Shown: positions 1 to 18,192 of the stretch, in pieces
How the letters are laid out: the number at the start of each line of letters is the position of its first letter
How positions within the stretch are numbered: position 1 is the first letter of the stretch
Source of the DNA: Trichodesmium erythraeum IMS101
Lineage (GTDB): Bacteria; Cyanobacteriota; Cyanobacteriia; Cyanobacteriales; Microcoleaceae
Assembly (NCBI RefSeq): GCF_000014265.1
Contig: NC_008312.1
Location: 1,860,001 to 1,892,000 of the forward strand
DNA: 32,000 bases
Direction of reading: 5' to 3'
The notes under the pieces: generated by a model
Seen by the model: the letters and a program-made list of their open reading frames with translations, nothing else
Database searches by the model: none
What the model was told of the DNA's origin: nothing
Made by a program: the position numbers and the translations under genes

Positions 1-116
1 TCTGCAAAATATTGAGCGATCGCCAAACTCTCAGTTTTGAATAAACCTACATCATCTGACTGCGGGCAAATGTGTGTAATTCCAGTTTGAGCTTGAAGTT
101 CCTCCGTCAAATCTTG
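1..116 (-). other. In-frame continuation of the 117..2237 reading frame past its TAG. The gene probably extends beyond the window, either nonsense-interrupted or read through.
   Basis: The reverse complement of 1-119 reads TAG then QDLTEELQAQTGITHICPQSDDVGLFKTESLAIAQYFA: 38 sense codons with no stop up to position 1. TESLAIAQYF resembles the Hsp70/actin-fold motif NEPTAAALAY, which is expected at about this distance after the phosphate-1 motif. Confidence 0.6.
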
Positions 117-2237
117 CTAAGTCTTCGCATACCTATTTTTATCACGACGAGAAAAAGCCGTAGGATAGGAAATACACCACTGAATTTGTTTGACTCCTTC
201 CTTGGCGGCAACCGCGCTTACATGTAAGGCTAAATGTTTCAAAAACAATTTGTTAGGATGGTAATTTTTCCACTTCAAGTCTGTTTCTATCCATCCCCTG
301 AGCGGTTCAAACCTGTTGCGATCAGGAATATATATCCTGCCATCAATAATTGGGAAATCTAGGTTTTCCGTCTTATTTGGCTTCCCCCTAGTTGTCAGCA
401 CGCTAGACAAGGGTAACGGTTTGTCAGTCGGGATAAAGCTTTCCGGGACAAAGTATTCAAACAATACAGGCCTGCGGGTTTCTGTCAAAACCTCCGTCAC
501 CTTCAAGTGCAAATTTTCCAACTTCAATGGCTCCGATAAACCGTTACTATTGACATAGATATTGGTGAAAGAAGTGCCGAAATCTACCCCCACTTTCCAT
601 CGTTCTCCCAGCCTAATTTTCTCTGGACTTTTCAGCAGAATCAAGCCAATGGGACTTCCAGAACTATCCTGACACTCAATGAAACTAGGAAATTCTTCTA
701 GGTGAGTTATTTGATAAGCACCCCTACCATCTATAAAAGGATGACGATCTTTCGCTTCCGGTAGAAACACTTGAAAAGTATCCTCTCCAAATTCAGCATC
801 GTAATAAAAAGCATAATAAGAGCGCCATCCATCCGCCAGGAAATTAGGCCATACTTCCAATACCGGAACTTCCGGCAAAGCATTTTTATCTTCTATGGGA
901 TAATCTTTGGAAATCCGATAATTCTGAGGTTGCCGAGGGTCATCTTTCATCCCTGACAAAGGCAAGTCCAGGGTTACCCGCACTTGAGGTCCATCACTAC
1001 TATTTATTTGAGCAAACTCGACCTTAGCGATTAAATCTTCCGGAGTAAAATAGTCGAGAAGTATAGGATTGATAGGTATCAGGGGCGTAATACTTTTACC
1101 CTGAAAAATTAACTTCGTCCCCGGAGGTAGGAAAGCTCCCGGTAGAGCATCTTCTTGGTCTACAAACCGAAATTCTTCCATAAATAAATCCTTGGACTCC
1201 TTCCACTCAACATCTGGCCAAGTAATTTTCTTTTCACGCAAGTCTTGTATTTGTAGGGAAGCCAGAGTTTGCTCCTCGTGTATCCAAATATCTTGAGGCG
1301 GTTTTCCCCAAGCTGAAGAAATGTTCTGGTCAATAATCAATAGAGGTTTTACCTGCCCCTTATTCTTACTAGGAACTAAGCGAACCCAAGAAGACTGAGC
1401 CTCAGCTTTCACCGGACGATTAATACCTTCCAACACCCCTCGATTAATGGCCACACCAAAAAACTGAGGATTATTGCTCAAACTCAGGCCCTGGTCCATT
1501 GGGCGAGGCCCCAAACTATTTTGGAAGTCATCTAGCAATCCGCCGATCGCATCAATTGCCTCTGCTTGGCCCTCATAGGAAGTATCGCCTAAAATTCCCC
1601 GCAAATTTTCTAACCAGCGCCAGAGGAGAGCCTTCTCGCTGACATTGAGATGTGGTTGAGGAGACTCCAACTGACCCGTCAGTTTGTTCCACCAAGGCAA
1701 GCCATTCCATTTTCCTTCTTCAGAGGGGGCCACTATAGTACTAGGAGTAGTAAGACCCACAAGTATACCATACCACAGAAATATATAAATGTCTTGCCAG
1801 GGATTTTTGGTTTCTAAGGCATACAGGGCATTAACTGGATCCGGTAGCAGTTCGTATAGAGAACGGGCGAAAGGATTTTGGTCTTTTTCTAGCCCCAAGT
1901 CTAAAAATTGAGCAGTTATGGGAAAGCGGCGTACTTCTGCCAAAGCAACCGCCGCCAACATCCCCTGCCACTGTTGGACCATTTTATCTCGGATGGGATA
2001 ATAGGGATTATGTAAAGCCATCTCCATGGATAAGGGACGAGCCCACATAGTCGGTACAGAGCTAACACTTTTCATTTCTCCTGGAGCTTGATAATCCAGA
2101 CTAGAGGCCACATCTTGAAAGGCTTTTGCTGGTTGTGCCTCCCATTTACCAGGAGTATCGCTGGATTTCACATCACTATCCCGCTTTAACTTGGGCAGGA
2201 CTAAAACGTAACTTTTGTTGACTTGTGTTCCTGTCAT
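117..2237 (-). CDS. Large uncharacterised protein. About 540 aa of unknown function are followed by the start of an actin/Hsp70-fold ATPase domain. The ORF stops at an in-frame TAG (117-119), but the frame stays open to the window edge.
   Basis: 706-codon ORF. A phosphate-1-type motif KVGVDFGTSFTNIYV lies near aa 550, followed by WCISYPTAFSRRDK (compare Hsp70 VITVPAYFND). I recognised no family motif in the N-terminal ~540 aa. The gene is co-directional with the tubulin-like gene and 238 bp downstream of it. Confidence 0.7.
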   Translation of the reverse strand: MTGTQVNKSYVLVLPKLKRDSDVKSSDTPGKWEAQPAKAFQDVASSLDYQAPGEMKSVSSVPTMWARPLSMEMALHNPYYPIRDKMVQQWQGMLAAVALAEVRRFPITAQFLDLGLEKDQNPFARSLYELLPDPVNALYALETKNPWQDIYIFLWYGILVGLTTPSTIVAPSEEGKWNGLPWWNKLTGQLESPQPHLNVSEKALLWRWLENLRGILGDTSYEGQAEAIDAIGGLLDDFQNSLGPRPMDQGLSLSNNPQFFGVAINRGVLEGINRPVKAEAQSSWVRLVPSKNKGQVKPLLIIDQNISSAWGKPPQDIWIHEEQTLASLQIQDLREKKITWPDVEWKESKDLFMEEFRFVDQEDALPGAFLPPGTKLIFQGKSITPLIPINPILLDYFTPEDLIAKVEFAQINSSDGPQVRVTLDLPLSGMKDDPRQPQNYRISKDYPIEDKNALPEVPVLEVWPNFLADGWRSYYAFYYDAEFGEDTFQVFLPEAKDRHPFIDGRGAYQITHLEEFPSFIECQDSSGSPIGLILLKSPEKIRLGERWKVGVDFGTSFTNIYVNSNGLSEPLKLENLHLKVTEVLTETRRPVLFEYFVPESFIPTDKPLPLSSVLTTRGKPNKTENLDFPIIDGRIYIPDRNRFEPLRGWIETDLKWKNYHPNKLFLKHLALHVSAVAAKEGVKQIQWCISYPTAFSRRDKNRYAKT

Positions 2238-2260
2238 ATCAGTTATCAGTTATCAGTATC
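2238..2260. repeat. STRR-like heptamer array (ATCAGTT x2 + ATCAGTA) abutting the start codon of the large gene
   Basis: The plus strand reads atcagtt atcagtt atcagta tc directly after the CAT (ATG on the minus strand) at 2235-2237. The same heptamer family occurs at 19300-19327 and 19591-19625. Confidence 0.7.
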
Positions 2261-2475
2261 GACAGCTAAAGCCAGAGGCTTGAAATACCTATGACATTTT
2301 TTTCATCCCCTTCAAAAGGGAGGCTTGAAACCTGATTTTTTTGCCATAATTGATATCCTCCCCGTCCTAAAGTCCCGGGAGAACTTATACTGTGCCTAAG
2401 CTCAAGGACTGTTTGACGTTTTATACTTAGCATGCGCTCTGGGCTCCGTAGGTAGTTGCTAACTTAAGTTTTTCC

Positions 2476-3948
2476 TTAAATCCTAGAGGCCATATATACG
2501 GACTTAGCCAGTCCTATAGTCCCACCGGGTGGAGTAGCCTTAAGTCCATCCTTGAGTTTTTTCACCGTATCTCGGGATTTTTTGCCTTTATCGCGACTAT
2601 CCCCAACTATCAGATTTGGCAGTTCATTTCCGGCCAATTTTTTGTTAGGGGGGAAAGCATCGGCTTGAAACAAAGCGATATTATCACCTTCGCACTGATG
2701 CAGAGAGTATAGCCAGCCCAAATAATCTTCACACCAATTATTAATTATTCCAATAGCTTCCTGTTGGTCAACATCAGAAAAGTCCGGTTTAGTCTCCCCA
2801 GATTTACTGCCAGTTTGGTAGAATTCCATCATCCAGGGAGCCAACCTTTGAAAGCGAGCATTTTTTTCCTTTTTCGCTTCTTCTAGTTCGGGAGCAATTT
2901 CTGCTAGCCATGTAAAAGCAAATCTGGTGGCATTCACTAACTCTGGTTGGACTTCTGCCTTGTCTGGGATATCGTCCCAGGAAATAGTCCCACTCTGCTG
3001 GCGAGTCATCAATATCACAGACCCTTTGGCTGTAGATGAATCTCGCCAAAAGTTACGCGCAGCCAATGCGGCGTATAGTTCTAGGAAATGGGGATCGTTG
3101 CGCTGACTATCTTTGCCGATACTAAAATTGACTCGGGATAAGTTTTGATTACCTAGGAGATAAACTTGGTCAAAGATTTCCTGACCTTGAGTGACGTAAT
3201 AACGAAGGGCCGCTTCCGTGTTCAGTAAAAACTGCTCGGAGCGAGCGTAGACCCCATCTGGGTTTTCCCCGGGTGTTGGAGCAAAGCCAAAATAGGGGAG
3301 TACAAAGAGGCAACCAGTTTGAACCCGATCGCGTACTTTGATTTTCTTCAACTTATTATCGATCAGGCGGGCAATAGTCGGCAGTCCAGAAGCCCCGGTC
3401 CCCCCAAATATAGACCCACACAGAAAAATTTTTGCCTCTTTACCGCCACCGGTATCTCCCTGAATTTCCTCGATCAATCTTCCCCAAGGCTCTTGCTCCA
3501 ACCTGTCCAAATCTACCTGACTCATCACCGCTGCACCAATGGCCGGTCTGCCCCTAAATCCTACATCTAAGTTAGCTTCCCGTTCTTCTTTAGTATAAAG
3601 GACATCGAATAAATGGGCCAAAGTAGGTTGTTTTTGCTTGATTGTGTTGTAGTTAAAAAATGTTCTCAGTTCTTTCTCTTGGGCAAAAGGCGACCAATGA
3701 TCGAAAGATTCGATTTTGCTTTTCATCCACCCACAATCTTTTTTGTCCCCAGTAGGGATCAAATCATAAGTTTTTTTATAGAGACTGATACTAGTCCTAG
3801 CACGAGCCAGATTTCCATTAGTTTCATCTGCATCTACAAATAAAACCTTAATGGGCTCTTCAGTAAATAAGCCTATGGCAGCTAATTTAGCTACTGCTTC
3901 AACACATTTAGCCCCCGTTCCACCAATTCCAATCAGATAAAGTCCCAT
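2476..3948 (-). CDS. Divergent FtsZ/tubulin-superfamily GTPase-like protein (Tubulin_2-type)
   Basis: 490-aa ORF. LIGIGGTGAKCVEA at aa 5-18 resembles the FtsZ/tubulin T1 loop. CGSIFGGTGASGLP at aa 177-190 resembles the T4 signature GGGTGSG. Neither is a Walker A GxxxxGK[ST]. The ATG lies 2 nt after the stop of the upstream membrane-protein frame. Confidence 0.7.
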   Translation of the reverse strand: MGLYLIGIGGTGAKCVEAVAKLAAIGLFTEEPIKVLFVDADETNGNLARARTSISLYKKTYDLIPTGDKKDCGWMKSKIESFDHWSPFAQEKELRTFFNYNTIKQKQPTLAHLFDVLYTKEEREANLDVGFRGRPAIGAAVMSQVDLDRLEQEPWGRLIEEIQGDTGGGKEAKIFLCGSIFGGTGASGLPTIARLIDNKLKKIKVRDRVQTGCLFVLPYFGFAPTPGENPDGVYARSEQFLLNTEAALRYYVTQGQEIFDQVYLLGNQNLSRVNFSIGKDSQRNDPHFLELYAALAARNFWRDSSTAKGSVILMTRQQSGTISWDDIPDKAEVQPELVNATRFAFTWLAEIAPELEEAKKEKNARFQRLAPWMMEFYQTGSKSGETKPDFSDVDQQEAIGIINNWCEDYLGWLYSLHQCEGDNIALFQADAFPPNKKLAGNELPNLIVGDSRDKGKKSRDTVKKLKDGLKATPPGGTIGLAKSVYMASRI

Positions 3949-3950
3949 AA

Positions 3951-4136
3951 TTATTCGCTAAAAAAACGACGCAAGTAAATTGAACCTGGGGGAACAAACT
4001 TTAAACTCCCAGGAGTAGTGGTTGCAGTTGGCAACCAAAAAAGTAATAAGATGTCCAACACAAAAAAGATAGTCAAAAACACAAGTGCATCATTACTACC
4101 TTGAAAAAAGCCTATGGCCCCACAAATACTCAATAC
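3951..4136 (-). pseudogene. 3' part of a small 3-TM membrane protein gene split by IS copy A
   Basis: The frame reads ...LSICGAIGFFQGSNDALVFLTIFFVLDILLLFWLPTATTTPGSLKFVPPGSIYLRRFFSE*. The ATG reported by the ORF track (4163) lies inside the IS terminal repeat and is therefore an artefact. This piece joins in frame to 5512..5743 once the IS is removed. Confidence 0.8.
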
Positions 4137-5511
4137 CGGGACTTTAGCAAATTTCAAGCCCAAACAAACCCTAAACTCTCTTTATGAGCGGTAAATACGT
4201 CGATGTTTTCATCTAACCACTCAACAAAACGATAAGATATTGCGGTACGAAATGCTTCTAAAGTATCAGTAAACGTATTTAATGGTTTGTTAGCCCAACG
4301 CCTCTTATACCTCCTGTTAACTGATGCCAGATAATAAATGTATAAGCACAAAATACTAAAATAAAATGCCTTTTAAGGCTGATTTTATCTCTGACTTGAT
4401 ATTCTCTTAATCCTAACCATCCTTTGGCTTCCCTGTAGAAAACTTCCACCCAATTTCTTTGAGAATAAGTAGAATATATCCACTCAGGAGTTACATATTT
4501 GTCTTCTCTATTAGTGATATAATAGTTAATATCAGTGGCCTCAGAAAAACTTTTAGCATTCATAACGATAGCTATAGTTTTTTGACCTGACATCCTAGAT
4601 ATTTCTACTTCTAATGTAGCTACCCAAACTTCTCTAGCATTTTTTGTACTTAGTTGAACTAAGTTGAAAGCTTTCTGAGGTATACTTTCTGCCAGCTTGT
4701 CTAATCTAATTTCCTCTTTAATGTCATCTTGTTTTTTAATGATGACTTTTCGATTTTTAGCTAATCCTCCTATATAAGTTAAACTTCTTTTCTCTAGTTG
4801 ATTTAAGAATGATGTATTGTTACCATAGCCAAATTTCAATTAACACAATTTCTGGTTGGTGTCCTCTGGACAAACATTGATCTACTAGAGACATTGCACT
4901 CGTCTGGTTTCTTGACAAATTCTGGGTCTTTTTTTCCTTTTGGAAAAGAATCAGCTTTCTGATACAAAGCTATGTCTAAAGGTAGACTTTTAACTCCATC
5001 ATAAAGATGAGTTGTCACCACGACTACACCATTATCTGTTTTTCCTATTTCTCCTATATATTGCCGCCCTACTCCTGCAGTAAAATTACCACTTTTTCTG
5101 TGGCCTGAATCGTCTATAATTAAAGCAATAGGATCGAGAAGGTTTTGTTTGGCGACGTTCCCACATTACTTGAAGACGACGCTCATTCACAGCATCTACA
5201 GACCAATTTGCTCGAACTAGAAAATGCCGTAATTTGTGGTACGTGTGACCTACAGTGTTGTTGGCAATTTGAGACAAGTTTTTTCGATCGCTTTCTCAAG
5301 AGTAATCCTCCTATATATTCCCTAAACCCTGTTTTTTGGGCTTTTGTTTTAAAGACATTGTTAAAGCGATCGCACCATCGATGGAAACAAGAGGGCATGG
5401 CCACTGAAGTTGTTTCTTTCATCAAACTTTTCCCAGGCCAGTAATTAACGTAAAATACATATCAGGTATACATTATACCCTTTTTTTTACTATTTTTTCA
5501 CTAAAGTCCCG
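4137..5511 (-). mobile_element. IS701-family-like insertion sequence, copy A (1375 bp), with a decayed transposase
   Basis: Perfect 11-bp terminal inverted repeats: CGGGACTTTAG (4137-4147) and CTAAAGTCCCG (5501-5511). It is flanked by the 4-bp direct repeat ATAC (4133-4136 and 5512-5515). It is identical to copy B (16817-18192) in every line I compared, except for one missing T near 4303. Confidence 0.9.
4154..5425 (-). pseudogene. IS701/IS4-superfamily DDE transposase, broken into at least 5 frames
   Basis: The pieces read FHRWCDRFNNVFKTKAQKTGFREYIGGLLL / ESDRKNLSQIANNTVGHTYHKLRHFL / IALIIDDSGHRKSGNFTAGVGRQYIGEIGKTDNGVVVVTTHLYDG / SAMSLVDQCLSRGHQPEIVLI / KFGYGNNTSFLNQLEKR...YSQRNWVEVFYREAK. 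The last piece has exact Y-2-R-3-E-6-K spacing. Copy A has an extra 1-nt deletion that splits the C-terminal ORF (4279..4839 and 4154..4351). Confidence 0.85.
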
Positions 5512-5743
5512 ATACGGGAAATAGCAAAAATATCCACCACACTACCACCCACTGGTCCACTTCTTTAGATCGGTGAGCTTTTGCGTTGGCGGTCATTAAA
5601 TACCAAATTATAGTTGACAGTACCGATACTACAAAAACTATCATCCCGCCAGGGTTGTAATAATTATTTATCCAAGTCCCTACATCAATATCTGATATTC
5701 TTAGGATTCTGCTTCTATAAAAAAAAGGTTGTACTAGGAACAT
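5512..5743 (-). pseudogene. 5' part of the small 3-TM membrane protein gene split by IS copy A
   Basis: The frame reads MFLVQPFFYRSRILRISDIDVGTWINNYYNPGGMIVFVVSVLSTIIWYLMTANAKAHRSKEVDQWVVVWWIFLLFPV and then runs into the IS end. 232 + 186 - 4 (one TSD copy) = 414 nt, which is 137 codons plus stop, in frame. Confidence 0.8.
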
Positions 5744-6483
5744 TACGATTAATCCTGTCAGGCTAAAAATAATGATCCGAATAATTTCCGATGCTTTTAT
5801 TGAATCTCCTATCAGTTTTAACTATTTATGTTGCATTCCTCCAAGTAGATTGATCCTGGAGTTTAAATTGATCTCCATATTTTTTTGGTCATCCTCAACC
5901 ACTATATTATTCTGGCTAATCACTTGACATCCTCCCGACCCGTCTCTACGGGACAGAGCTGGATTCCCTAATATCAAGTTATAGGATATTTGGTACTTCT
6001 CGCCTACCTGGCCTCTGAAATTAACTGCCTTCGAGTCTTAGGGTTACTTCACAGTTTATCGCAACTCCGACGCCGTCCCTAGACACTGGGAGTCCCCCAA
6101 GGAAAACATTTATACTTGCGTTTATGTCCCTGTCATGTTATTGAAAAGATTCTGGACATTTCTTCTCTTTAATAATCTTCAATAATAATAAAAAATAAAG
6201 TTAATTATTCTATAGAAATTATCAATTATTTTCCCCTACTTCCTACCCCGTAAAAACTTTGTATGGAACGTCTCTAACTCTATATTTTCTGGAGATGTCT
6301 AATATTCAAAGATAATTTTTCTACTACATGACTACGATGAGAAAAACCCTTATAACTAGGAATATATTGGTCAATTTTGATTAATTCCTGCCCGTACTAT
6401 TGCGCTTTATATTCTAGTTGCATTACTAATATTAAGTCTGATTAATTATTCATAATAAAAATGCTCTTCTCACATCAATTTAT

Positions 6484-6525
6484 CCCAATTTCCAACTCCC
6501 AATTCCTAATTCCCAATTCCCTAAA
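6484..6525. repeat. STRR-like heptamer array (CCCAATT consensus, about 6 units)
   Basis: The array reads cccaatt tccaact cccaatt cctaatt cccaatt ccctaaa with strict 7-nt phasing. Confidence 0.75.
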
Positions 6526-6563
6526 ATTTTCCCACCGTGAGTATTCAAACAAAAATAATATAA

Positions 6564-6599
6564 CCCATCCCTCAGCTGAGGGTGGGCTATAGTTTTTTA
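6564..6599 (-). terminator. Possible intrinsic terminator hairpin (GC-rich near-palindrome around CCCTCAGCTGAGGG)
   Basis: cccatccctc-agct-gagggtggg forms about 9 bp with one bulge. On the minus strand it is followed directly by TTATATTATTTTTG. On the plus strand the T-run is 6 nt away. It lies about 400 nt downstream of the DUF1830 stop, so the assignment is weak. Confidence 0.3.
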
Positions 6600-6981
6600 C
6601 CATATTTTATACTGTTAAATTTTCAATTACAATTAATTGATTTTATCTAGATTACTTGGGTAGTCAATTTATGGGTATAGTCAAACCTTGAATATTTCAA
6701 TTTTTGCCCGTATTATTGATACTTTTAGCTACAATTTTTGATAATTTTTGGAATCTTTAAGTCTTACTGATGAATGATTTTTAAGTTAACCTCAGTTTTT
6801 TGTGCAACTTGTTAATATTTTTTGGTTTAACAACTAATTGTCTCTCATCAGAATTTATAAAGTTATTAATCTTTGCTTTTACTAATATAAAAACAGTTAG
6901 TGATGATTCCTAAAAAATATCAACCACTAACTATTATGACATACTCTATCAAACTAATTTTGATAGATTTTAAACTATTAA

Positions 6982-7335
6982 TTATTCATCAACTTTCAAG
7001 CCTTTGCACGAAAAACTTTCTGATTTAATTTCACCATTTTCTTGAGTTTGATGAATTTCTAATTCTGCTTCAGGAGTTGCTTCAAATAAGAAACGTTCTC
7101 CAGGAAAAACTGTACGCTCCCAATATTTGTTTTCTACACTACTAACTCTAGCGATCTGCATTTTACGAGTATTATTCCCATAGAAACAGAGAATCTTTTG
7201 GCTTTGCTGTTTTGGTAGTCTATCTAGTGCTATAGTCACAATATTTAAATTCCCTCTAAGTTTTTGCTGCCAATTAGCAACCCGACTGAATCTGATATCT
7301 TTAAGAGTGCCAATACTGTTATTATAAGCTAACAA
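6982..7335 (-). CDS. DUF1830-family cyanobacterial protein
   Basis: ILCFYGNNTRKMQIARVSSVENKYWERTVFPGERFLFEATPEAELEIHQ matches the DUF1830 core as I remember it (ILCCY.N....IQIARI...N.YFERVVFPG.RLLFEA.PEA.LEIH). The start is uncertain: TTG at 7335 or the GTG about 31 codons in. There is no ATG before the core. Confidence 0.75.
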   Translation of the reverse strand: MLAYNNSIGTLKDIRFSRVANWQQKLRGNLNIVTIALDRLPKQQSQKILCFYGNNTRKMQIARVSSVENKYWERTVFPGERFLFEATPEAELEIHQTQENGEIKSESFSCKGLKVDE

Positions 7336-7439
7336 ATATTACTTAAGTATATTTTTAATTAACTTTTGTAAAACAAAATTAATTTAACTTAAGTTGTCCA
7401 GTATAAACCTAGTATTTTATAAGTATAAATGCCCATAAT

Positions 7440-8705
7440 TTAGCATTTCATACTGATAGAATTACTAATCTTACTAAATAATGTTGATAAAACAGTATTA
7501 GAAAACAAAAAACCTTCAGGATCAGTCAATCTCAGATGTCCCTCTATCGGAAGTTTCTGGTTATCAGAGAAAGGGGTTGCTACACCTTTTTGATTGATAA
7601 ACTCTACCCACCCTAACTTTTGATAGGGTTGTAGATAGATTAATAATTTTTCTACAGTTTTTTGACCAAACTGCTGGGATAATGTTAAGACATTTATCCC
7701 TTGTGCCAAGCGAAATCCTAACATCAGTGTTTCTAACAAAAAATCCTGATTTGATGCATTAATACCCTGACTTTCTAAACTATGATCTTGAAACGATAGC
7801 ACCCATTGATAATATTTTTTCCGCGTACGCGGCCTGGTAAATCTTTGTCCTTCTAAATAGCTGGCTGCACCCATGCCAAAGCCATAATAAGGATGATTTT
7901 CCCAGTAAACTCGATTGTGGCTACACTGATAGCCTTGCTTGGCATAATTAGATATCTCATAATGTTCATATCCCGAAATTGATATCAGTTGCTGTGCAAT
8001 TCGATACATTTCAGCTGCTGTTTCATCTGTAGGTAAAGGAGCATGACCTGGTTTATAGTAATGTCCAAAAGCTGTAACTTTTTCTAGTACAAGGTCATAG
8101 CTGGATATATGAGTTGGAGAAATAGCTATTCCACTTAACAAAGAAATTTGCCATTGTTCTAAAGTTTGGTGGGGCAGTCCTGAAATTAAATCAATACTGA
8201 AGTTAATAATTCCTGCTTGATGCAATGTATTTACTGCTTTGTAAATATCTGAGACATTGTGTAATCGCCCACAAACCTGTAATAAATCATCTTGAAATGC
8301 TTGTACTCCAAGGCTGACTCGATTTACTCCTAGGAATTTATATCCTTGCACTTGTTCTAAGTCAAAAGTTCCGGGGTCCATTTCTATAGAAATTTCAGCA
8401 TTGGCCACAATTCCAAATTTTTGTTCTAGGGCATCTAAAATCCGACTTAATTGACCCACTGACAATAGGGAAGGAGTACCACCACCAAAAAAAATTGTTT
8501 TTAAGGGTTGATCAAAAGACTTTGTAGTGCTTATTTCCTGACAAATTACCTCTACATATTCTTGAATTGGAGAAAAATTATCACCTTTCTTACCATCACC
8601 TACTACAGAGATTGGGAAATCACAGTAATAGCATCGCCGTCGGCAGAAAGGGATATGGACATAAGCCGAACTGGGAATACAATAATTTCCGACTGGCCTT
8701 TTCAC
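7440..8705 (-). CDS. hemW: Radical SAM family heme chaperone HemW / HemN-like protein
   Basis: HIPFCRRRCYYCDF has the CxxxCxxC cluster followed by DF rather than the fourth Cys of true HemN. FFGGGTPSLL is also present. At 421 aa the length is typical of the family. Confidence 0.85.
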   Translation of the reverse strand: MKRPVGNYCIPSSAYVHIPFCRRRCYYCDFPISVVGDGKKGDNFSPIQEYVEVICQEISTTKSFDQPLKTIFFGGGTPSLLSVGQLSRILDALEQKFGIVANAEISIEMDPGTFDLEQVQGYKFLGVNRVSLGVQAFQDDLLQVCGRLHNVSDIYKAVNTLHQAGIINFSIDLISGLPHQTLEQWQISLLSGIAISPTHISSYDLVLEKVTAFGHYYKPGHAPLPTDETAAEMYRIAQQLISISGYEHYEISNYAKQGYQCSHNRVYWENHPYYGFGMGAASYLEGQRFTRPRTRKKYYQWVLSFQDHSLESQGINASNQDFLLETLMLGFRLAQGINVLTLSQQFGQKTVEKLLIYLQPYQKLGWVEFINQKGVATPFSDNQKLPIEGHLRLTDPEGFLFSNTVLSTLFSKISNSISMKC

Positions 8706-9678
8706 TATTAATTAATTGTATTAATATTTACAAATTTTATAATTATATAAAAATATTTTAAATAATTATAAATTTTATTATGGGTAGTAGTACGGTAAAC
8801 CATAAAGGTAATATTTTTTAGGGAAAAAAATATTACTTAAATAAAAATAAAATAACGCTTAACATAATTAGCGGATAAAGTCAAGTTGCAGTTGCAAATC
8901 AAAAAAATCTTCTTCATCTTGCGTTCTCAACTCTGGTTTCCTTCCACCAAAGTGTAAGTATTCAAGAGGATTTGATATTATAAATTACTTTTATTTAGCC
9001 GTATTATTATGGTAATCCTGAGGGTATAAATTATTATATTTTATTAAAGTTAAATAATTTAATAGTAATTAAAAAAAATTGCTATAAATAAGTTTTAGGC
9101 AGTAGATTAACAAGTTAATTTTAATTTTTTTAATCTAGCTAAATAGCTTGGTATCGTGTGTTTTTAGCTATGGACTATATGAAAAACAGGGCGAGATGAA
9201 AAGGTTCAGAGTAACACAGATAAAATTAATATTATAGATACTACCTTACATTTCATAAATGCACTTACTAGAATTAGTCATTCTAGTAGCTTATTTATAA
9301 CATTATTTAATTGATTAGTTATAACTATTTAACTACAATCCTAAATATAATTAGTAATATTCCATAAATTTTAATGATAAATTAAGTAAAAATAGTCACT
9401 TTTTTTTTGTTGTAAGATAGATTTTGTAGTTCAGGAGTAATTTGACAGGCAAGGCAGCATTATTAATTGTCGGCAAATTGATTCTGAGGTTAAAACCTAA
9501 TAATAAAGAGAACCTTAAAGAATGGTATCTCAACTTTATAGATATAATATATGCAACATTGAGCTACCCAAAAATTATCCAAAAATCATGGTTCTTAATC
9601 ATTATTTTATTGGTTAGTACCTCATTAGAGAAATACCTCTTATAAAACAAAAAACAAAACAAAAAACAAACTAAAAAA

Positions 9679-10758
9679 ATGCTTGACGCACTTATTATTA
9701 TTTCATTTGTATTTGCTGGAGCGGGAATAGGTTTCTATAGCATAGAACTACTTCCACCTAACGTATTGCTAGAAGTCACTAACATCGAAGGTTTACGTTC
9801 AGTATTATCTGCCTTCACTTCTTTAATTGGGTTTGTAGTGGGATTAGTATTTCAAACTACATATCGCCGAGTAGAAATTAAATTCAGACAAATGCCTGTA
9901 GACTTATTATTAACTCGGGCGATAGGATTAATAATTGGACTATTAGTGGCCAACTTAATGCTGGCGCCACTGTTTTTACTTCCTATTCCCGATGAGTTTA
10001 GTTTCATTAAACCTCTTGTGGCAGTTTTAGCTAGTGTGATGTTAGGTTTTACTGGAGTTAATGTTGCTGATACTCATGGTCGTGGTTTTTTACGATTAAT
10101 TAATCCTAACAGTCTGGATGCAGTATTAGTAGCTGAAGGTACTCTCAAACCTTCTACTACTAAGATTTTGGATACTAGCTGTATTATTGATGGTAGAATA
10201 GAAAGTCTGTTGAAGACAGGTTTTTTGGAGGGTCAAATTCTGGTACCAAACTTTGTTTTACAGGAGTTACAGCTTATTGCTGATGCTTCTAATGATCAAA
10301 AAAGAGTCAGAGGTAGACGAGGGTTAGATATTTTAAATAGACTTAAAGAGCTTTATCCTTCTCAAATTCAAATCCATTTTGCAGACTATGAAGAAATTCC
10401 TACTGTGGATGCGAAGTTGGTTCGTTTTGCTCTGGAAATTAATGGTACTTTGTTGACGAATGATTACAATTTATCTAAGGTTGCTAGTTTACAAAAGGTT
10501 CCTGTTCTCAATATTAACGACTTGACTCAAGCAGTAAGACCAAGTTATTTGCCTGGTGATACTATTGAAATCAAAATTCGTAAGGAAGGTAAAGAACCTT
10601 CTCAGGGTATTGGCTATTTAGATGATGGTACAATGGTTGTTGTGGAGTCTGGTAGTGGATATGTTGGTGATGAGGTGCGGGTTATTGTGACCAGTTCTTT
10701 ACAAACTTCTGCGGGTAGGATGATTTTTGCTCGTACTCAAGAGTCAGCGATCGCTTAA
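9679..10758 (+). CDS. PIN/TRAM domain-containing membrane protein (YacL-like)
   Basis: The N-terminal part has about 4 hydrophobic segments. A PIN-like region follows (ILDTSCIIDGRI ... LLTNDYNLSKVA). The C-terminal part is TRAM-like (GDTIEIKIRKEGKEPSQGIGYLDDGTMVVVE...GDEVRVIVTSSLQTSAGRMIFA). Confidence 0.8.
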   Translation: MLDALIIISFVFAGAGIGFYSIELLPPNVLLEVTNIEGLRSVLSAFTSLIGFVVGLVFQTTYRRVEIKFRQMPVDLLLTRAIGLIIGLLVANLMLAPLFLLPIPDEFSFIKPLVAVLASVMLGFTGVNVADTHGRGFLRLINPNSLDAVLVAEGTLKPSTTKILDTSCIIDGRIESLLKTGFLEGQILVPNFVLQELQLIADASNDQKRVRGRRGLDILNRLKELYPSQIQIHFADYEEIPTVDAKLVRFALEINGTLLTNDYNLSKVASLQKVPVLNINDLTQAVRPSYLPGDTIEIKIRKEGKEPSQGIGYLDDGTMVVVESGSGYVGDEVRVIVTSSLQTSAGRMIFARTQESAIA

Positions 10759-11193
10759 TCAAATTAAAAGTTAAAACTCGTGCATTCAACAGTCAAAACT
10801 TAAAGCTTAAAAATTTGATCAAAGAGATCAGGCTATTAGTTAGGGTGAGGATCAGTTTAACCATTTTGCAACAACTTTTCAAAGATACAATAGCAACAAT
10901 AGTAGGAGACCTACCTTGCTCCCCTCCCAACGAGGGGATGCTGGTGGGTAGGGACGTTATATAAGGAAGTCTCTACAACAGGTCAACAAATTAAGATTAA
11001 TAAGGATCAAAGTATACCAATAAGTCCTGTCAGAGAGTATGTTCATCACTTAAATTTCTCAATTGTTATCTAAGTATAGTATTAATGCATGAGAATTGGC
11101 TTTATTAAGAATAAAGGAGAAACTAAACTGCCAAAACTTATCCAATTCCGGCGTGAGTAATTTTAGATAAGTTTAGTAGAAAACAATCTAAAA

Positions 11194-11847
11194 ATGAAAA
11201 ATCAACAGCTAATTATTTTTACTCGTTATCCGGAACCAGGAACAACAAAAACACGGTTAATTCCTGTTTTGGGGGCTAAAGGTGCCGCAAACCTTCAGTT
11301 TCATATGACTGAGACAACTGTCATAAAAGCTAAGAAGTTATCTAATATGATGGCATTGTTAGTTGAAGTTAGATTTGCTGGTGGCAATTTACAGTTAATG
11401 AAAAATTGGTTAGGAGTGGAGCTTAATTTAAAATATCAAAAACAGGGTACAGGTGATTTAGGTGAACGTATGGCAAGAGCTTTTGAATCTGCTTTTTATC
11501 AGGAGATGGAGTCTGTTGTAATTATTGGTACCGACTGCCCAAGCTTAACTGTGGATATTATGTTGGAAGCTTTTGCTAAATTAACTGAATATGATGTGAT
11601 CATTGGTCCGGCAACTGATGGGGGTTATTATTTAATTGGCCTCAAAAAAATTATTCCTGAGTTGTTTCAAGGAATTAATTGGGGAACTTCTGAAGTATTG
11701 TCAAAAACTATGGCGATCGCTCAAAATCTTAATTTAGATATTCACTATTTACCTAAACTTTCTGATATTGACCGTCCAGAAGACCTGGAAAAATTACAAT
11801 TTGAAATTCATCAGGACTTACGCAAAGATACTATATATAGTACATAA
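11194..11847 (+). CDS. TIGR04282/DUF2064-type glycosyltransferase (arsenosugar-biosynthesis-associated family)
   Basis: LIIFTRYPEPGTTKTRL, IGTDCPSLT, GPATDGGYYLIGL and INWGTSEVL are characteristic of the DUF2064 family. Confidence 0.75.
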   Translation: MKNQQLIIFTRYPEPGTTKTRLIPVLGAKGAANLQFHMTETTVIKAKKLSNMMALLVEVRFAGGNLQLMKNWLGVELNLKYQKQGTGDLGERMARAFESAFYQEMESVVIIGTDCPSLTVDIMLEAFAKLTEYDVIIGPATDGGYYLIGLKKIIPELFQGINWGTSEVLSKTMAIAQNLNLDIHYLPKLSDIDRPEDLEKLQFEIHQDLRKDTIYST

Positions 11848-11953
11848 TTTTGGTGATATTCACTATAGTTGTATAGGTTTATAGTCGCGACATTAAAACC
11901 TCTACTTTGTGGAGCGCAATTCCTTAGTTTTTTTTAAAAGCTCCAGTTATTAG

Positions 11954-11979
11954 AGTTAAATAAGTTTAATTTTAAGGGC
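11954..11979. repeat. Orphan copy of a 26-nt IS-end-like sequence (AGTTAAATAAGTTTAATTTTAAGGGC)
   Basis: 25/26 identical and in the same orientation as 12215-12240, which abuts the 3' end of an IS5-type transposase fragment. Confidence 0.6.
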
Positions 11980-12214
11980 AGGATATTTAAATCCGATGTC
12001 AGATAATTTGATAACAATTCCTGGCTATTCTTACTCAATACTTTTTCTGATTTTCCTACTCTATAAGTTAAAAAAAATCCAGAATAATACAATTTTGAAA
12101 GTATAATTTTACGAATAGTAAAGTATATAAAAAACAGACGGCAGATGTATAACTAAGAAAAAAAAATGATTGATGAATTCAAAGTGGTATTGAATATATT
12201 TTTTCTGACTTTAA

Positions 12215-12240
12215 AGTTAAATAAGTTTGATTTTAAGGGC
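12215..12240. repeat. Probable terminal repeat of the truncated IS5-type element at 12245-12480
   Basis: AGTTAAATAAGTTTGATTTTAAGGGC lies 5 nt beyond the stop codon of the transposase fragment. A second copy is at 11954-11979. Confidence 0.55.
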
Positions 12241-12244
12241 TAAT

Positions 12245-12480
12245 TTATAAAGTAAATCTTAAATTATCTAGTCTCTTAAGCGTCAGTTGGATTAATGGTC
12301 CATAAATCATTGCTTTACTTACATCTGAATAGACTTCGTAATCCTTACTTAAGCGTCTAAATCTATTTAACCTCCCATAAGTACGTTCAACAAATCTATC
12401 GTTTAGGCTATTGCTCAAAACTTTGTGAGGTTCCTTTGATCACTTCTACTCTGACACCATTGCGACAAATCTGTTTAACA
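12245..12480 (-). pseudogene. C-terminal fragment of an IS5-family (DDE_Tnp_1-type) transposase
   Basis: The minus strand reads SNSLNDRFVERTYGRLNRFRRLSKDYEVYSDVSKAMIYGPLIQLTLKRLDNLRFTL*. This is the classic ERT(F/Y).(W/R)LNRFRRLSKDYE tail. Upstream pieces are in another frame with a stop, and no N-terminal part is present. Confidence 0.75.
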
Positions 12481-12655
12481 ATATTTTATTGCTTACAAAA
12501 TATCTAAACGATATTTAATCACAACACTTAATTTAACTGAGACTAAACTTTTTTTAAATTATCTTTATGAATAAACTCTTAGCTTGCTTATCTTTGTTTT
12601 TTGACTATTGGTAGGTTATAATTTCCAAAAAATTAAATTTGTGAAGGATATTTTT

Positions 12656-12758
12656 ATGGAACCTATTGAGTTTGCTTGAGTAGCGATCGCCATTCCCTTC
12701 TTGAACAAGTCTGTGGAAAATCTAAGAGAGAAGTTAGGGGAAAATGGAATTAAACAAT
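12656..12758 (+). pseudogene. 5' remnant of an unidentified ORF interrupted by the DDE_Tnp_4 IS
   Basis: The frame reads MEPIEFA*VAIAIPFLNKSVENLREKLGENGIKQ, with an in-frame TGA at 12677-12679. It continues in frame at 13895 (LAKLWKTIRAMPENTF...) if the IS and one AAT copy are removed. Confidence 0.5.
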
Positions 12759-13891
12759 AGACATCTCCAAAATAAAAAATAAGGTAAAATTATCAAAACC
12801 ATTTATTTATAAAGTCTCCCAAATGAATCCAACTTTAGAATATATTTATAACCATCCAAAAGAAACAAAAAGAATTATTGGCATTACTTATGAACAGCTA
12901 ATAAAATTAATAGCAAAGGCCCAAATAATAGAATCAGAGAAAAAGAAGGCGATCGCTAAAACAGAAAAAAGATTAATTAAAGCAGGTGGAGTCAGAAAAA
13001 AGAATTTAACAAAGGAGGAAGAAATAATTTTAACGTTATTTTATTTACATCAAATACCGACTTTTCAAACATTAGGAATTAACTTTGGTATAAGTGAATC
13101 AAGTGCTAATAATATTTTTCATTACTGGATAGATATTCTCAGAGAATTACTGCCAGCAAGTTTATTAGAACAAGTAAAAAAAAAAGAAAATGAATTGGAA
13201 TGGGTAAAGGAGATATTAACAGAATTAGAATTAATTGTAGATAGTACAGAACAAAGTAGAGAAAGACCAAGTGAATATAAAGACCAAGAAAAATATAAAA
13301 TATGAAAAAATAAAAATCATACTTTTAAAAATCAAATAATAACGACACCAAAAGGAACAGAAATAGTAGATGTAATAGTAGGAGAAAAAGGTCCAGTAAG
13401 TGATGTAAAAATATTAAGAAAACAACAGGATAAATTTGATAAAAAACAAAAATTTCAAGGAGATAAAGCTTATGAAGGAGTAGAAAGAACTACTACACCA
13501 AAAAAGAAACCAAGAAAAAAAGAAATGCCGCTAGAAATCAAAGAAGAAAATCAAGAAAAAGCCAGAAAGAGAATATTTGTAGAACATGTAATAAGATTAA
13601 TTAAAATATTTGGAATTGCTAGAGAAAGATTCAGATTAAAAGATAATAATTATCAAAAAGTAATCTTAACAATATGTGGTTTAGTGCGACTAAGAATTGG
13701 ATCTTTTATATTAGCATAAACCATCAAAAGCTGAGATAAAAAGAATAAATTAAAGTACAATAAATATTTGAATTAGTAACACAAAGTATCTCTGATGCCC
13801 ATAAAACTGTACAAATTAACTATCTTCATAAGTAGCGATCGCACCACTAAAGATAGTTAGGATAAGCGTTTGAGTATTTTTGGAGATGTCT
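12759..13891 (+). mobile_element. IS5-family / Harbinger-like (DDE_Tnp_4) insertion sequence, 1133 bp
   Basis: The terminal inverted repeats are AGACATCTCCAAAA (left) and TTTTGGAGATGTCT (right). The flanking direct repeat is AAT (12756-12758 and 13892-13894). A TA duplication with ends one nt further in is also formally possible, but only AAT restores the host frame. Confidence 0.8.
12823..13719 (+). pseudogene. HTH_Tnp_4 + DDE_Tnp_4 transposase with a single in-frame TGA (13303-13305)
   Basis: ORFs 12823..13305 and 13525..13719 are in the same frame (offset 702 = 3 x 234), and the stretch between them has no other stop. Motifs: LTKEEEIILTLFYLHQIPTFQTLGINFGISESSANN (HTH), LIVDSTEQ, HTFKNQ, GDKAYEG, RIFVEHVIRLIKIF. 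Confidence 0.8.
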
Positions 13892-14150
13892 AATTAGCCA
13901 AGCTATGGAAAACTATTAGGGCTATGCCTGAAAATACTTTTATGGCTTTAAAACCTTCACAAGATGGTCTTTTTCCTGAAAATTTTGAAGTGGCTATTAA
14001 GGAAATAGAAAAAGTTGCTAATCAAAATTGAGAGCTTAAACAAGATATTATTGATGTAATTGCTTTTGCTGAAAAAGAACATTCAGAAGATGTGAAAAAC
14101 CTGCAAGCTGAGTGTCTTTGTTGCATGAAAATAGCGAACGCAAACTTCCC
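13892..14150 (+). pseudogene. 3' remnant of the ORF interrupted by the DDE_Tnp_4 IS
   Basis: The frame reads LAKLWKTIRAMPENTFMALKPSQDGLFPENFEVAIKEIEKVANQN*ELKQDIIDVIAFAEKEHSEDVKNLQAE, with an in-frame TGA at 14029-14031. The helical, charged character resembles N-terminal modules of cyanobacterial STAND-type proteins, but this is only an impression. The right boundary is undefined because it runs into another IS fragment. Confidence 0.4.
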
Positions 14151-14164
14151 GCCAGAGAAGTCAA

Positions 14165-14455
14165 TTAGAATTCTACTTTGTAGCTTTTTGGTTGACAATT
14201 CTGTATCATGCGCTTAAGGATAGCACACTGTATAACTCTACTGCTTGAGTATCAAATTTTCGAGATCACTTCTGGGAAGATAACTTTGAGCCTAAACATT
14301 TTTGTTTCTGCTAAAGAACGTCGATGGTATCCACTCTCACGTTTCCATTTTTTACCTCCCACTCTATGAATTTCTCTAAATTGTCATCTCTTGAGGTTAA
14401 TAACTTATAGCTGATAACTGAATGCTTACCTTTAATCTCTTTACGGTATCCAACA
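14165..14455 (-). pseudogene. Fragment of an IS5-type transposase (GYHRRSLAETKMFRLK motif), frameshifted
   Basis: The minus strand reads AVGYRKEIKGKHSVISYKLLTSRDDNLEKFIEWEVKNG.., VGGKKWKRESGYHRRSLAETKMFRLKVIF.., RKFDTQAVELYSVLSLSA.. in shifting frames. Confidence 0.6.
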
Positions 14456-14571
14456 GCTAATAATTGAATTACCAAAATTAATAAGGCTGTATTCTTTCAG
14501 CAAATACAAAAAAAATATCAACTCTTATCAAGACTATCAAATATATCTAAAAAGTGTTTTTTTTAATAATT

Positions 14572-15544
14572 GGTAGTCCTGTATATGTAGTGATAAAATT
14601 ACAGTGAAGCGATCGCTTCATTATAATGATTAATGAAATACCAAATAGCTCCTAGATGGGACCGAAGCTTTTTAGAAAAGGATAAAGTCTTTCTGACCAA
14701 CCGAGAAATTCTTTGACGCAAAGTATTATTCAATCTTTCTATATAAGCTGTTAAACCTGAATATTCCCCACTGATTTATGTCTCTCTTCAGGAAAGACAA
14801 GCTCGTAAGCTGACCAAAAATCTGTATAACAAACTGCACACGGCCTTAAGACACCGTGGGTTAGAATTCCATAATCTATGCTGCCCCTTTTTCTCCTCTT
14901 TCCCCTAAGTAAAAACCCACAATTTCTTTAGTTTCTATATCAATCGCTAACCACAGCCATTGTTTATTATTTTTATTGCCTACAAATGACCACATTTCAT
15001 CACATTGAATGGTGAGTTTACCTGTTTTTTTTTAGTACATTTAATAGAGCGTGAAACCTCAGCATACTTATTATTGACGTAATTCTGGAGCCATTTTTCT
15101 GACACGCCTGTTACACGGGTTATACCAGCTAAACTAATTTTTTCTCTATTTTAATTTATCAATAAGTTCTTTGGTTTCATTACTAATATAATCTCTTTGA
15201 CTATTTTCGACAAATTGTCTCTGACAATTTTGACATTGATATTTTTGTTTTTTGTTGTGAATAGTCCCATTTTTGACAATATGATTACTGCCACAACTAG
15301 GACAGATTAATTTATGAATGGACATCTGAATTATATAGATTTTTTCTTATTACTGTCATAGATAATAGCATACTTTTTTCATGATAGTTGAGTTTAATTC
15401 TTGATAGTTTAATGACTGATTATTATGTAGCGATCGCCTAGATAAAAATTTTGAATTATTAAGCATAAAAAACTTAATGTTTTCAAGATTGATGTCAATA
15501 ACTAATCATTTATATTGGCTTATCACTACATATACAGGACCACC
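14572..15544 (-). mobile_element. IS1-family insertion sequence (973 bp), with a decayed transposase
   Basis: About 25-bp inverted repeats: GGTAGTCCTGTATATGTAGTGATAA (14572-14596) versus the reverse complement of the right end, GGTGGTCCTGTATATGTAGTGATAA (one mismatch). There is a perfect 8-bp direct repeat TAATAATT at 14564-14571 and 15545-15552. Confidence 0.85.
14599..15325 (-). pseudogene. IS1 InsA/InsB-type transposase with several stops and frameshifts
   Basis: The minus strand reads MSIHKLICPSCGSNHIVKNGTIHNKKQKYQCQNCQRQFVENSQRDYISNETKELIDKLK* (InsA zinc finger). Further pieces are ..QCDEMWSFVGNKNNKQWLWLAIDIETKEIVGFYLGERGEKG.. and ..SGLTAYIERLNNTLRQRISRLVRKTLSFSKKLRSHLGAIWYFINHYNEAIASL* in other frames. 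Confidence 0.8.
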
Positions 15545-16612: not shown

Positions 16613-16620
16613 GACTACCT

Positions 16621-16680: not shown

Positions 16681-16816
16681 ACCTGTATCAGATCTAAAAC
16701 CCTCACATTTTCCACAAAATAATTGCAGAGGGCAGCAAGGGAAATATATCTGACTACCTCCTCCATAATTTAATTTATTCTGACTAACTGTAAGAAGGTT
16801 TATGCAACTTTCCTAT

Positions 16817-18192
16817 CGGGACTTTAGCAAATTTCAAGCCCAAACAAACCCTAAACTCTCTTTATGAGCGGTAAATACGTCGATGTTTTCATCTAACCAC
16901 TCAACAAAACGATAAGATATTGCGGTACGAAATGCTTCTAAAGTATCAGTAAACGTATTTAATGGTTTGTTAGCCCAACGCCTTCTTATACCTCCTGTTA
17001 ACTGATGCCAGATAATAAATGTATAAGCACAAAATACTAAAATAAAATGCCTTTTAAGGCTGATTTTATCTCTGACTTGATATTCTCTTAATCCTAACCA
17101 TCCTTTGGCTTCCCTGTAGAAAACTTCCACCCAATTTCTTTGAGAATAAGTAGAATATATCCACTCAGGAGTTACATATTTGTCTTCTCTATTAGTGATA
17201 TAATAGTTAATATCAGTGGCCTCAGAAAAACTTTTAGCATTCATAACGATAGCTATAGTTTTTTGACCTGACATCCTAGATATTTCTACTTCTAATGTAG
17301 CTACCCAAACTTCTCTAGCATTTTTTGTACTTAGTTGAACTAAGTTGAAAGCTTTCTGAGGTATACTTTCTGCCAGCTTGTCTAATCTAATTTCCTCTTT
17401 AATGTCATCTTGTTTTTTAATGATGACTTTTCGATTTTTAGCTAATCCTCCTATATAAGTTAAACTTCTTTTCTCTAGTTGATTTAAGAATGATGTATTG
17501 TTACCATAGCCAAATTTCAATTAACACAATTTCTGGTTGGTGTCCTCTGGACAAACATTGATCTACTAGAGACATTGCACTCGTCTGGTTTCTTGACAAA
17601 TTCTGGGTCTTTTTTTCCTTTTGGAAAAGAATCAGCTTTCTGATACAAAGCTATGTCTAAAGGTAGACTTTTAACTCCATCATAAAGATGAGTTGTCACC
17701 ACGACTACACCATTATCTGTTTTTCCTATTTCTCCTATATATTGCCGCCCTACTCCTGCAGTAAAATTACCACTTTTTCTGTGGCCTGAATCGTCTATAA
17801 TTAAAGCAATAGGATCGAGAAGGTTTTGTTTGGCGACGTTCCCACATTACTTGAAGACGACGCTCATTCACAGCATCTACAGACCAATTTGCTCGAACTA
17901 GAAAATGCCGTAATTTGTGGTACGTGTGACCTACAGTGTTGTTGGCAATTTGAGACAAGTTTTTTCGATCGCTTTCTCAAGAGTAATCCTCCTATATATT
18001 CCCTAAACCCTGTTTTTTGGGCTTTTGTTTTAAAGACATTGTTAAAGCGATCGCACCATCGATGGAAACAAGAGGGCATGGCCACTGAAGTTGTTTCTTT
18101 CATCAAACTTTTCCCAGGCCAGTAATTAACGTAAAATACATATCAGGTATACATTATACCCTTTTTTTTACTATTTTTTCACTAAAGTCCCG
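16817..18192 (-). mobile_element. IS701-family-like insertion sequence, copy B (1376 bp)
   Basis: It has the same 11-bp inverted repeats as copy A (16817-16827 and 18182-18192). It is flanked by a different 4-bp direct repeat, CTAT (16813-16816 and 18193-18196). Confidence 0.9.
16834..18106 (-). pseudogene. IS701/IS4-superfamily DDE transposase with the same four frame breaks as copy A
   Basis: All ORF-track fragments are identical in sequence to those of copy A. The C-terminal ORF is longer (228 aa) because the T missing in copy A is present here. Confidence 0.85.

Follow-up and report, generated by a model that had tools for sequence, protein, structure and literature searches.

At one end of a 32,000-nucleotide stretch of the Trichodesmium erythraeum IMS101 genome (contig NC_008312.1, positions 1,860,001 to 1,892,000; the whole stretch is referred to here as the window, and positions are counted from its first letter), nucleotides 1–5800 hold three co-directional genes on the minus strand, in the order F3, F2, F1. 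F3 encodes a small membrane protein, F2 a predicted GTPase of the tubulin/FtsZ superfamily, in a short form of the Tubulin_2/FtsZl1 family, and F1 a giant protein with a predicted actin/Hsp70-type (ASKHA) fold. F2 (2476..3948) is intact and specifies 490 amino acids (aa). F3 lies between 3951 and 5800 and is interrupted by an insertion sequence (IS). F1 starts at 2237, separated from F2 by a gap of 238 bp, and runs past the window edge, positions 1..2237 being the 5′ 745 codons of a gene for about 1090 aa. An earlier note, written from the letters of this DNA, had already placed three minus-strand genes in a row here, with the same gap and a giant open reading frame (ORF) leaving the window from 2237, and the ORF coordinates agree with it. 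These are genes and not chance ORFs, as hundreds of homologues exist and the long-term ratio of nonsynonymous to synonymous substitution (dN/dS), 0.13–0.18, is that of purifying selection. A scan of the three window proteins against NCBIfam returned noise only.

Two glycine-rich loops characterize F2, GIGGTGA near the N-terminus and FGGTGASG at residues 181–188. The earlier note had recognized them as T1-like and T4-like, and in an alignment of 29 sequences G9, G10, G12 and K14 of the first and G182-G183-T184-G185-A186-x-G188 of the second are invariant. The T4 loop, GGTGASG, exceeds the classical tubulin signature by one residue. The comparison with Tubulin_2 that the note had proposed gave a match to Pfam PF13809 at 34.5 bits (cut-off 27; E=1.8e-8) over residues 5–222. 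An AlphaFold2 (AF2) model of F2 (predicted local distance difference test score, pLDDT, 77) was compared with the PDB by Foldseek, and the best match was to FtsZ, a weak one (E 2.8e-3, probability 1.0, TM-score about 0.3); the C-terminal half is helical. Sequence searches of the PDB, with single sequences and with profiles, gave nothing significant for either F2 or F1, and the tubulin-like and actin-like folds are thus visible only by structure comparison. More than 1399 homologues of F2 were found. A search of the phage collection gave no homologue. The length of F2 ranges from 433 to 615 aa across 83 loci, and the window protein is 97% identical to those of two Trichodesmium metagenome-assembled genomes (MAGs), MAG_R01 and MAG_R02.

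The translation of F1 displays the motifs VGVDFGTSFTNIY, ISYPTAF and TESLAIAQY, in which the earlier note had seen the phosphate-1 and connect motifs of actin and Hsp70, an assignment now backed by structure comparison. The window part of F1 is 95% identical to the full-length 1091-aa protein P0121, on which we built a model with a 36-sequence alignment (AF2, pLDDT 80.7). Residues from about 545 to about 1000 of this model matched MreB, the Hsp70 nucleotide-binding domain (NBD), EutJ and PilM in the PDB with Foldseek E-values of 5e-7 to 1e-4. The model had 130 PDB matches at E<=1e-3 and a two-lobed ASKHA fold; viral Hsp70 homologues ranked top in BFVD. Invariant in the 36 sequences are D552, G554, T555 and S556 of the phosphate-1 motif (DxGTS), G761, G762, T764, S765 and D766 of the phosphate-2 motif (DxGGGTSD, with D759 nearly invariant) and G890, G891 and N892 of the adenosine motif (GGNG). 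In this fold and these three motifs the C-terminal half of F1 is akin to MreB, FtsA, PilM, EutJ and the DnaK NBD. It differs from them in an N-terminal region of about 540 aa, in an insertion of about 65 residues, modeled at low confidence, and in being without an Hsp70 substrate-binding domain; the region after the NBD is helical. The N-terminal region, which the earlier note likewise could not place in a family, has no structural counterpart among the listed PDB or BFVD matches. No Pfam family reached its cut-off for F1: short FtsA, MreB and EutA matches fell below it and neither HSP70 nor SrfB was matched. SrfB-like and TubZ/ParM affinities found no backing in Pfam.

The stop codon of F3 falls 2 nt before the F2 ATG, as had been noted, and in two other genomes checked F3 abuts or overlaps the F2 start. 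A 137-aa product with three transmembrane (TM) segments, starting at 5743, had been proposed. This start must be revised, for the homologues begin MKxxEIIRII..., 19 codons upstream of the ATG at 5743 in the alignment, and the frame is open back to 5800; the reconstructed product has 156 aa and four hydrophobic segments. Its 5′ part (5512..5800, minus strand) matches the F3 hidden Markov model (HMM) with E=4e-38 over profile positions 2–98, and its 3′ part (3951..4132, minus strand) with E=1.5e-23. Between the two lies an IS701-family element of 1375 bp (4137..5511, minus strand). Its ends are perfect 11-bp inverted repeats (CGGGACTTTAG), and it is flanked on both sides by GTAT (4133–4136 and 5512–5515), a 4-bp duplication of the target. 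Its transposase frame is broken into several ORFs, the largest of which matches the IS701 transposase model NF033540 with E=1.6e-35. MAG_R01 preserves the empty site, the alignment to the window breaking exactly at 4151 and 5512.

In all, the copy has three lesions. Besides the IS insertion in F3, the first codon of F3 (5800..5798) is ATA, as against ATG in MAG_R02 and in a third Trichodesmium genome, MAG_R03, and codon 707 of F1 (117..119, minus strand) is TAG. The latter is a nonsense lesion, since the 97%-identical MAG_R01 copy has TGG and W707 is invariant in 36 homologues. The earlier note had identified the insertion and the in-frame TAG, both of which hold against MAG_R01, and it missed the start-codon change; its conclusion that the copy is inactivated is borne out. 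The system is non-functional in this genome. In MAG_R01, F3 (about 6148–6620 of locus L001) has a normal ATG and is free of the IS; it carries two nonsense codons of its own, at codon 5 (GAA>TAA) and at a Trp codon near position 130. These differ from the window lesions, and F3 has therefore been inactivated independently in two very close lineages. The genes are intact in MAG_R02 and MAG_R03. For F1, dN/dS among the closest Trichodesmium copies is raised to 0.38–0.65 (from small counts), and together with the three lesions this indicates a recent relaxation of constraint in this lineage. The IS is itself recently mobile, as a 99.9%-identical copy, differing by 1 nt in length and in the same orientation, lies at 16817..18192. 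The DUF1830 and HemN-like genes are part of the 11.3 kb between the two copies, and both copies have a broken transposase frame, which may mean mobilization in trans. As a separate observation, F2 of Microcoleus sp. F6_B6 (positions 10001–11482 of locus L010) is full-length by tblastn with no long ORF called, and that copy may also be disrupted.

A pattern and tblastn scan of one genome per species (185,579 species genomes) returned 175 stretches encoding a relative. Gene order was counted, after ORF calling and clustering, in the best 80 non-redundant loci of these, all of them cyanobacterial except one MAG labeled "uncultured bacterium". F2 is directly followed by F1 in 68 of 70 loci and directly preceded by F3 in 73 of 79. 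Synteny is thus conserved in other cyanobacteria, where the earlier note had proposed to look for it. Two further families recur. F4, of about 464 aa, is found upstream in 53 of 70 loci, mostly in divergent orientation, and at least one member of a family that we call F0 lies downstream in 56 of 59, in one to six paralogues (typically 2–4). The usual cyanobacterial order is F4, F3, F2, F1 and then the F0 array. The triad is thus the 5′ part of a cluster of 7–10 genes, and not the self-contained three-gene cassette that had been proposed. None of the five recurrent families is a P-loop GTPase, and no GTPase family was detected among 123 downstream proteins of the cyanobacterial clusters. In Trichodesmium, MAG_R02 (positions 1–11398 of locus L091 for the part with F4) shows F3-F2-F1, six further genes (at least four of the F0 family) and then F4, all co-directional; the cluster has ten genes over about 22 kb, seven of them following the three seen in the window. 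F4 therefore stands at the 3′ end in this genome, as opposed to divergent and upstream in most cyanobacteria, and a profile search showed it to be absent from all 32 kb of the window.

F4 has a lipobox Cys, an invariant D58..S62 within DGSGSM, and then a nearly invariant T155 and an invariant D156, a pattern like the metal-ion-dependent adhesion site (MIDAS) of vWA domains. UniRef gives three members the name "VWFA domain-containing protein". The F4 profile found nothing in the PDB. The F0 proteins have variable N-termini (a zinc ribbon, a lipoprotein signal, a TM helix or long coiled coils) and share a C-terminal domain of about 110 aa with the pattern ...GNYWI...YLVP...LF.C.GY...KPA.V...W.L.E.G.L.F, which matches no Pfam family. 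Their number and architecture vary widely between relatives. Six clusters (L015, L043, L044, L051, L066 and L070) hold a second F1-like gene (590–994 aa) in the downstream array, and three others (L046, L056 and L061) have F1-like genes of 1314–1380 aa among the F0 genes.

At E<=1e-3 the F1 profile retrieved 2090 cluster representatives, of which 802 reached <=1e-30. We examined five contigs with more distant full-length F1 proteins (L086, a Pyrinomonadaceae MAG of the Acidobacteriota, and L087 to L090, which are metagenomes or MAGs). All five have the co-directional order F4-F3-F2-F1-F0. By Pfam, the operons of L086, L087 and L088 close with a gene of the OmpA family. Most of the five thus have a terminal pair that is, or putatively is, ZorA-like and ZorB-like. 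The regions in question span 8474–10923 in L086, 14619–17736 in L087, 13597–16226 in L088 and 11706–14380 in L090, those of L086 and L087 being the ones scanned in full. The last two genes of L086 and L087 encode a MotA/ExbB-type protein of 583–703 aa with a long coiled-coil tail and then a MotB/OmpA protein (Pfam MotA_ExbB 23.3 bits, OmpA 38–47 bits). They match the PADLOC models ZorA1 (E=4e-11) and ZorB1 (E=4e-15), a ZorB-type match being expected for any MotB/OmpA protein. In L090 the scan covered the penultimate gene, which matches MotA_ExbB at 21.6 bits, just under the cut-off. L089 has a SPOR-domain protein in place of the stator pair. More distant still, the human oral Bacteroidota strain Prevotella sp. 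oral taxon 299 str. F0039 encodes an F2-like protein (542 aa) and an F1-like ASKHA protein (1162 aa) at 9917–15049 of locus L094, with no F3, F4 or F0 recognizable by profiles in the neighborhood.

These partners bear on the class to which the cluster belongs. Tubulin_2 corresponds to the FtsZl1 family of Makarova and Koonin (2010, PMC2875224), an equation made explicit in PMC9871819. According to the 2010 paper, the FtsZl1 operons combine FtsZl1 with vWA and OmpA/MotB-family proteins, in some cases with MotA/TolQ, and were predicted to form a membrane-associated complex that acts in membrane remodeling. Our cluster shares with them a divergent GTPase of the Tubulin_2 type with conserved T1 and T4 loops and an association with membrane proteins; a vWA partner is likely by motif, and OmpA/MotB-family partners appear outside cyanobacteria. 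In Deinococcus the published operon also has a MotA/TolQ/ExbB protein. One operon listed there, Magnetospirillum amb2961, includes a 1626-aa DnaK-like protein. The FtsZl1 entries examined in the published neighborhood table have 763–1208 aa, and a coiled-coil C-terminal region is described for the family, whereas F2 has about 490 aa and a helical C-terminal half; the published Trichodesmium entry is another locus (Tery_1705-1709); and neither a four-TM partner, nor an obligatory ASKHA neighbor of about 1090 aa, nor an F0 array is described there. An OmpA/MotB-family partner is present in L086, L087, L088 and probably L090, and in none of the cyanobacterial clusters scanned. We therefore place the cluster with the predicted FtsZl1 (Tubulin_2)-vWA-OmpA systems, as a variant of short form, and assign it neither to Zorya nor to the DO-GTPase systems. 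The earlier pointer to divergent FtsZ-like families with multi-gene neighborhoods was therefore well aimed, FtsZl1 being that class. The accompanying statement, that the trio is no recognizable cell-division, TubZ/ParM partition or named defense cassette, stands as far as PADLOC and TubZ/ParM are concerned, but the genes do have described relatives in the FtsZl1-vWA-OmpA class. As a side observation, a ZorAB-like pair of this sort may also be what the "B7 + COG1360" genes represent in the cyanobacterial FtsZl1 operons already published.

Two other known classes invite comparison. The DO-GTPase/GAP1-N2 conflict systems (Kaur et al. 2020, PMC7159879) likewise feature proteins of the tubulin superfamily, ATPases of the HSP70 type (in some cases devoid of the peptide-binding domain), vWA proteins, zinc ribbons and TM parts, join a constant core to variable linked genes, and are predicted to make NTP-dependent multimeric assemblies near the membrane. 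Their defining DO-GTPase (a P-loop TRAFAC protein) and FNIII-repeat components were not found in the present cluster. Moreover, tubulin and HSP70 form separate, non-overlapping themes there, seen chiefly in Firmicutes and Actinobacteria, whereas here the tubulin-like and ASKHA proteins are always together, mainly in cyanobacteria. With Zorya (PMC11946911) the likeness lies in the terminal pair of L086 and L087, which matches the PADLOC ZorA and ZorB models. By analogy, such a pair suggests signaling from the envelope to the cytoplasm. The cluster departs from Zorya in that PADLOC detected no ZorC, D, E, F or G among the window proteins or among F1–F4 and F0 of L086 and L087, and in that the stator pair is absent from the window and from the cyanobacterial clusters. 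Partners of the tubulin or Hsp70 kind go unmentioned in the Zorya papers, and a literature search combining Zorya/ZorAB, tubulin-like, Hsp70, vWA, MotA and cyanobacteria brought up no description of this architecture.

The distribution of the cluster is accessory in that it is patchy, at times plasmid-borne and at times duplicated. Most copies are chromosomal, and some genomes have two. Intact copies are carried on plasmids of culturable strains, namely in Gloeothece verrucosa PCC 7822, in Picosynechococcus PCC 8807, PCC 7003 and PCC 73109, and in Synechococcus sp. NIES-970, their genes being annotated as hypothetical or unknown except the F2 gene of Gloeothece. The copy on the plasmid of Picosynechococcus sp. 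PCC 8807 (9964–18827 of locus L093) has all its genes called "hypothetical protein", and it adjoins the operon of an alternate F1F0 ATPase and genes for a phosphonate transporter. Base composition was noted separately. The cluster genes of the window (1–4000) have 43–45% GC, as compared to 28–36% in the remaining window. Across 69 loci the median difference between cluster and flank is +0.3%, the outliers among loci listed individually being Trichodesmium and Okeania (+7 to +14%), for which the high value could point to acquisition from a cyanobacterium of higher GC.

The identity of the locus, together with its decay, we hold with high confidence. For its ancestral function we propose an envelope-anchored, nucleotide-regulated assembly. 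In this proposal, F2 would be tethered to the membrane by the adjacent and probably translationally coupled four-TM F3, and F2 and the giant F1 ATPase would serve as the assembling or switching engines. The F0 coiled-coil proteins may dock onto this cytoplasmic machinery as adaptors through their common C-terminal domain. The putative vWA lipoprotein F4, with the stator pair or the TM and lipoprotein members of F0, would provide the link to the periplasm and the cell wall, and these periplasmic or peptidoglycan-facing parts could report on, or act on, the state of the envelope. By analogy with Zorya, we somewhat favor a response triggered by a stimulus, either in conflict or upon envelope damage, over a constitutive part in a cytoskeleton. 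We lean this way on account of the ZorAB-like module, the accessory distribution and the variable set of F0 genes. Taken as a whole, that the window holds the decaying first part of a conserved cluster for such a triggered, envelope-anchored assembly strikes us as slightly better than an even bet. A conflict-type mechanism taken by itself falls somewhat short of even odds.

Several observations weigh against this proposal. The three window proteins have no match in PADLOC. No effector domain (nuclease, protease or pore-former) was recognized in the cluster, and the cyanobacterial clusters scanned have neither MotA nor OmpA, which makes the ZorAB analogy an indirect one for the window. The Foldseek list for F2 interleaves FtsZ with Rossmann-fold dehydrogenases, a weak match to the tubulin fold. 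By eye, with no systematic test, no T7-type motif is obvious in the F2 sequence and model (T6-H7 was likewise not alignable in the published description of FtsZl1), which leaves a polymerization-coupled GTPase activity of F2 hypothetical. The match of F4 to Pfam VWA is marginal (E about 0.06, in 1 of 19 members), and its description as vWA-like draws on motifs, source names and marginal HMM matches. The TAG in F1, seen in a single assembly, could in principle be a sequencing error. The 150 proteins that flank the 80 cyanobacterial loci form a flat, mostly housekeeping spectrum with no enrichment in defense genes, and PADLOC matches among them are sparse and partly generic. We accordingly do not use a "defense island" as evidence, and the argument of the earlier note from IS-rich accessory and conflict DNA is a weak one. 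Sequence identity falls roughly with taxonomic distance, a trend that suggests vertical inheritance and a cellular machine more than a fast-moving defense system. Finally, function is inferred for every member of the family.

These same housekeeping flanks, the identity that tracks taxonomy and the lack of a recognizable effector make a constitutive cytoskeletal or envelope reading nearly as likely as a triggered response. In its explicit form, both NTPases would form membrane-bound filaments in a constitutive machine for membrane remodeling or envelope maintenance, Tol-Pal-like or vesicle-forming, in which the coiled-coil proteins and the putative vWA lipoprotein, joined elsewhere by a proton-driven stator, help to shape or stabilize the envelope. 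The membrane, lipoprotein, peptidoglycan-binding and coiled-coil components agree with such a machine, as do the strong long-term purifying selection and the published inference for the parent family (PMC2875224). A constitutive machine would sit uneasily, however, with only 175 relatives across a collection of 185,579 species, with plasmid-borne copies in several strains, with dispensability and repeated inactivation in Trichodesmium, and with an F0 complement so variable in number and architecture. On these grounds we regard it as possible and less than probable.

The idea that the membrane protein, the tubulin-like GTPase and the actin-like ATPase make up a novel conflict cassette complete in itself draws on the near-constant adjacency and order of F3, F2 and F1, on the Prevotella pair that stands without recognizable F3, F4 or F0, and on the failure to match PADLOC or a named system. 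It has to contend with the F0 genes that follow in 56 of 59 loci, with F4 in 53 of 70, with the seven genes by which the Trichodesmium cluster extends past the window edge, and with the earlier description of its parent class (Tubulin_2, vWA and OmpA); we consider it quite unlikely. Less likely again is a chaperone or assembly system in which F1, regulated by the GTPase, would fold, export or polymerize F0 as a structural product such as an envelope or surface lattice. The F1 NBD is Hsp70-like with invariant motifs, and the numerous, coiled-coil-rich F0 proteins have a common domain that might act as a client tag and, in some, lipoprotein signals. Yet F1 comes without an Hsp70 substrate-binding domain, a J-domain partner or a GrpE partner, it does not match Pfam HSP70, and nothing shows that F0 is exported. 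A module for DNA partition in the manner of TubZ/ParM, belonging to a plasmid or an island, which the pairing of a tubulin-fold with an actin-fold NTPase and some plasmid copies might bring to mind, is disfavored to the point of being highly improbable by the chromosomal location of most copies, the lack of a centromere-binding protein, the membrane, periplasmic and peptidoglycan-binding partners, the absence of F2 homologues from the phage collection and the placement of F2 by Pfam in Tubulin_2 and not TubZ.

Studies of bacterial NTPases usually treat those of the tubulin fold and those of the actin fold as cytoskeletal systems apart from each other. In this cluster, one of each fold is locked into a single operon in at least three phyla, the Cyanobacteriota, the Acidobacteriota and, more distantly, the Bacteroidota, with partners that point to the cell envelope. 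The link to a ZorAB-like stator provides a concrete hypothesis for the membrane remodeling predicted for FtsZl1 in 2010, and it would extend the range of outputs that a Zorya-type motor can drive. More tentatively, the locus may be a defunct copy of an envelope machine that is widespread and so far undescribed, with an obligatory tubulin-fold and actin/Hsp70-fold core, a four-TM tether, a vWA lipoprotein and, outside cyanobacteria, a stator. Were this the case, and the machine triggered by a stimulus, it would represent a new class of immunity or envelope repair that uses both cytoskeletal folds as the output module of a ZorAB-type sensor. Experiments are feasible, as intact plasmid copies exist in Picosynechococcus, close relatives of a genetically tractable model cyanobacterium. 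For this window the message is a modest one, since the Trichodesmium copy is being lost, and it is the family rather than the locus that merits attention.

The remainder of the window has a low coding density, noted for 9000–32000, with only 13 ORFs of at least 120 aa in 5800–32000. It includes a pair of 168-bp inverted repeats (23870–24035 and 25328–25494), 86% identical and about 1.3 kb apart, and a shorter inverted pair at 21173–21224 and 22518–22569.

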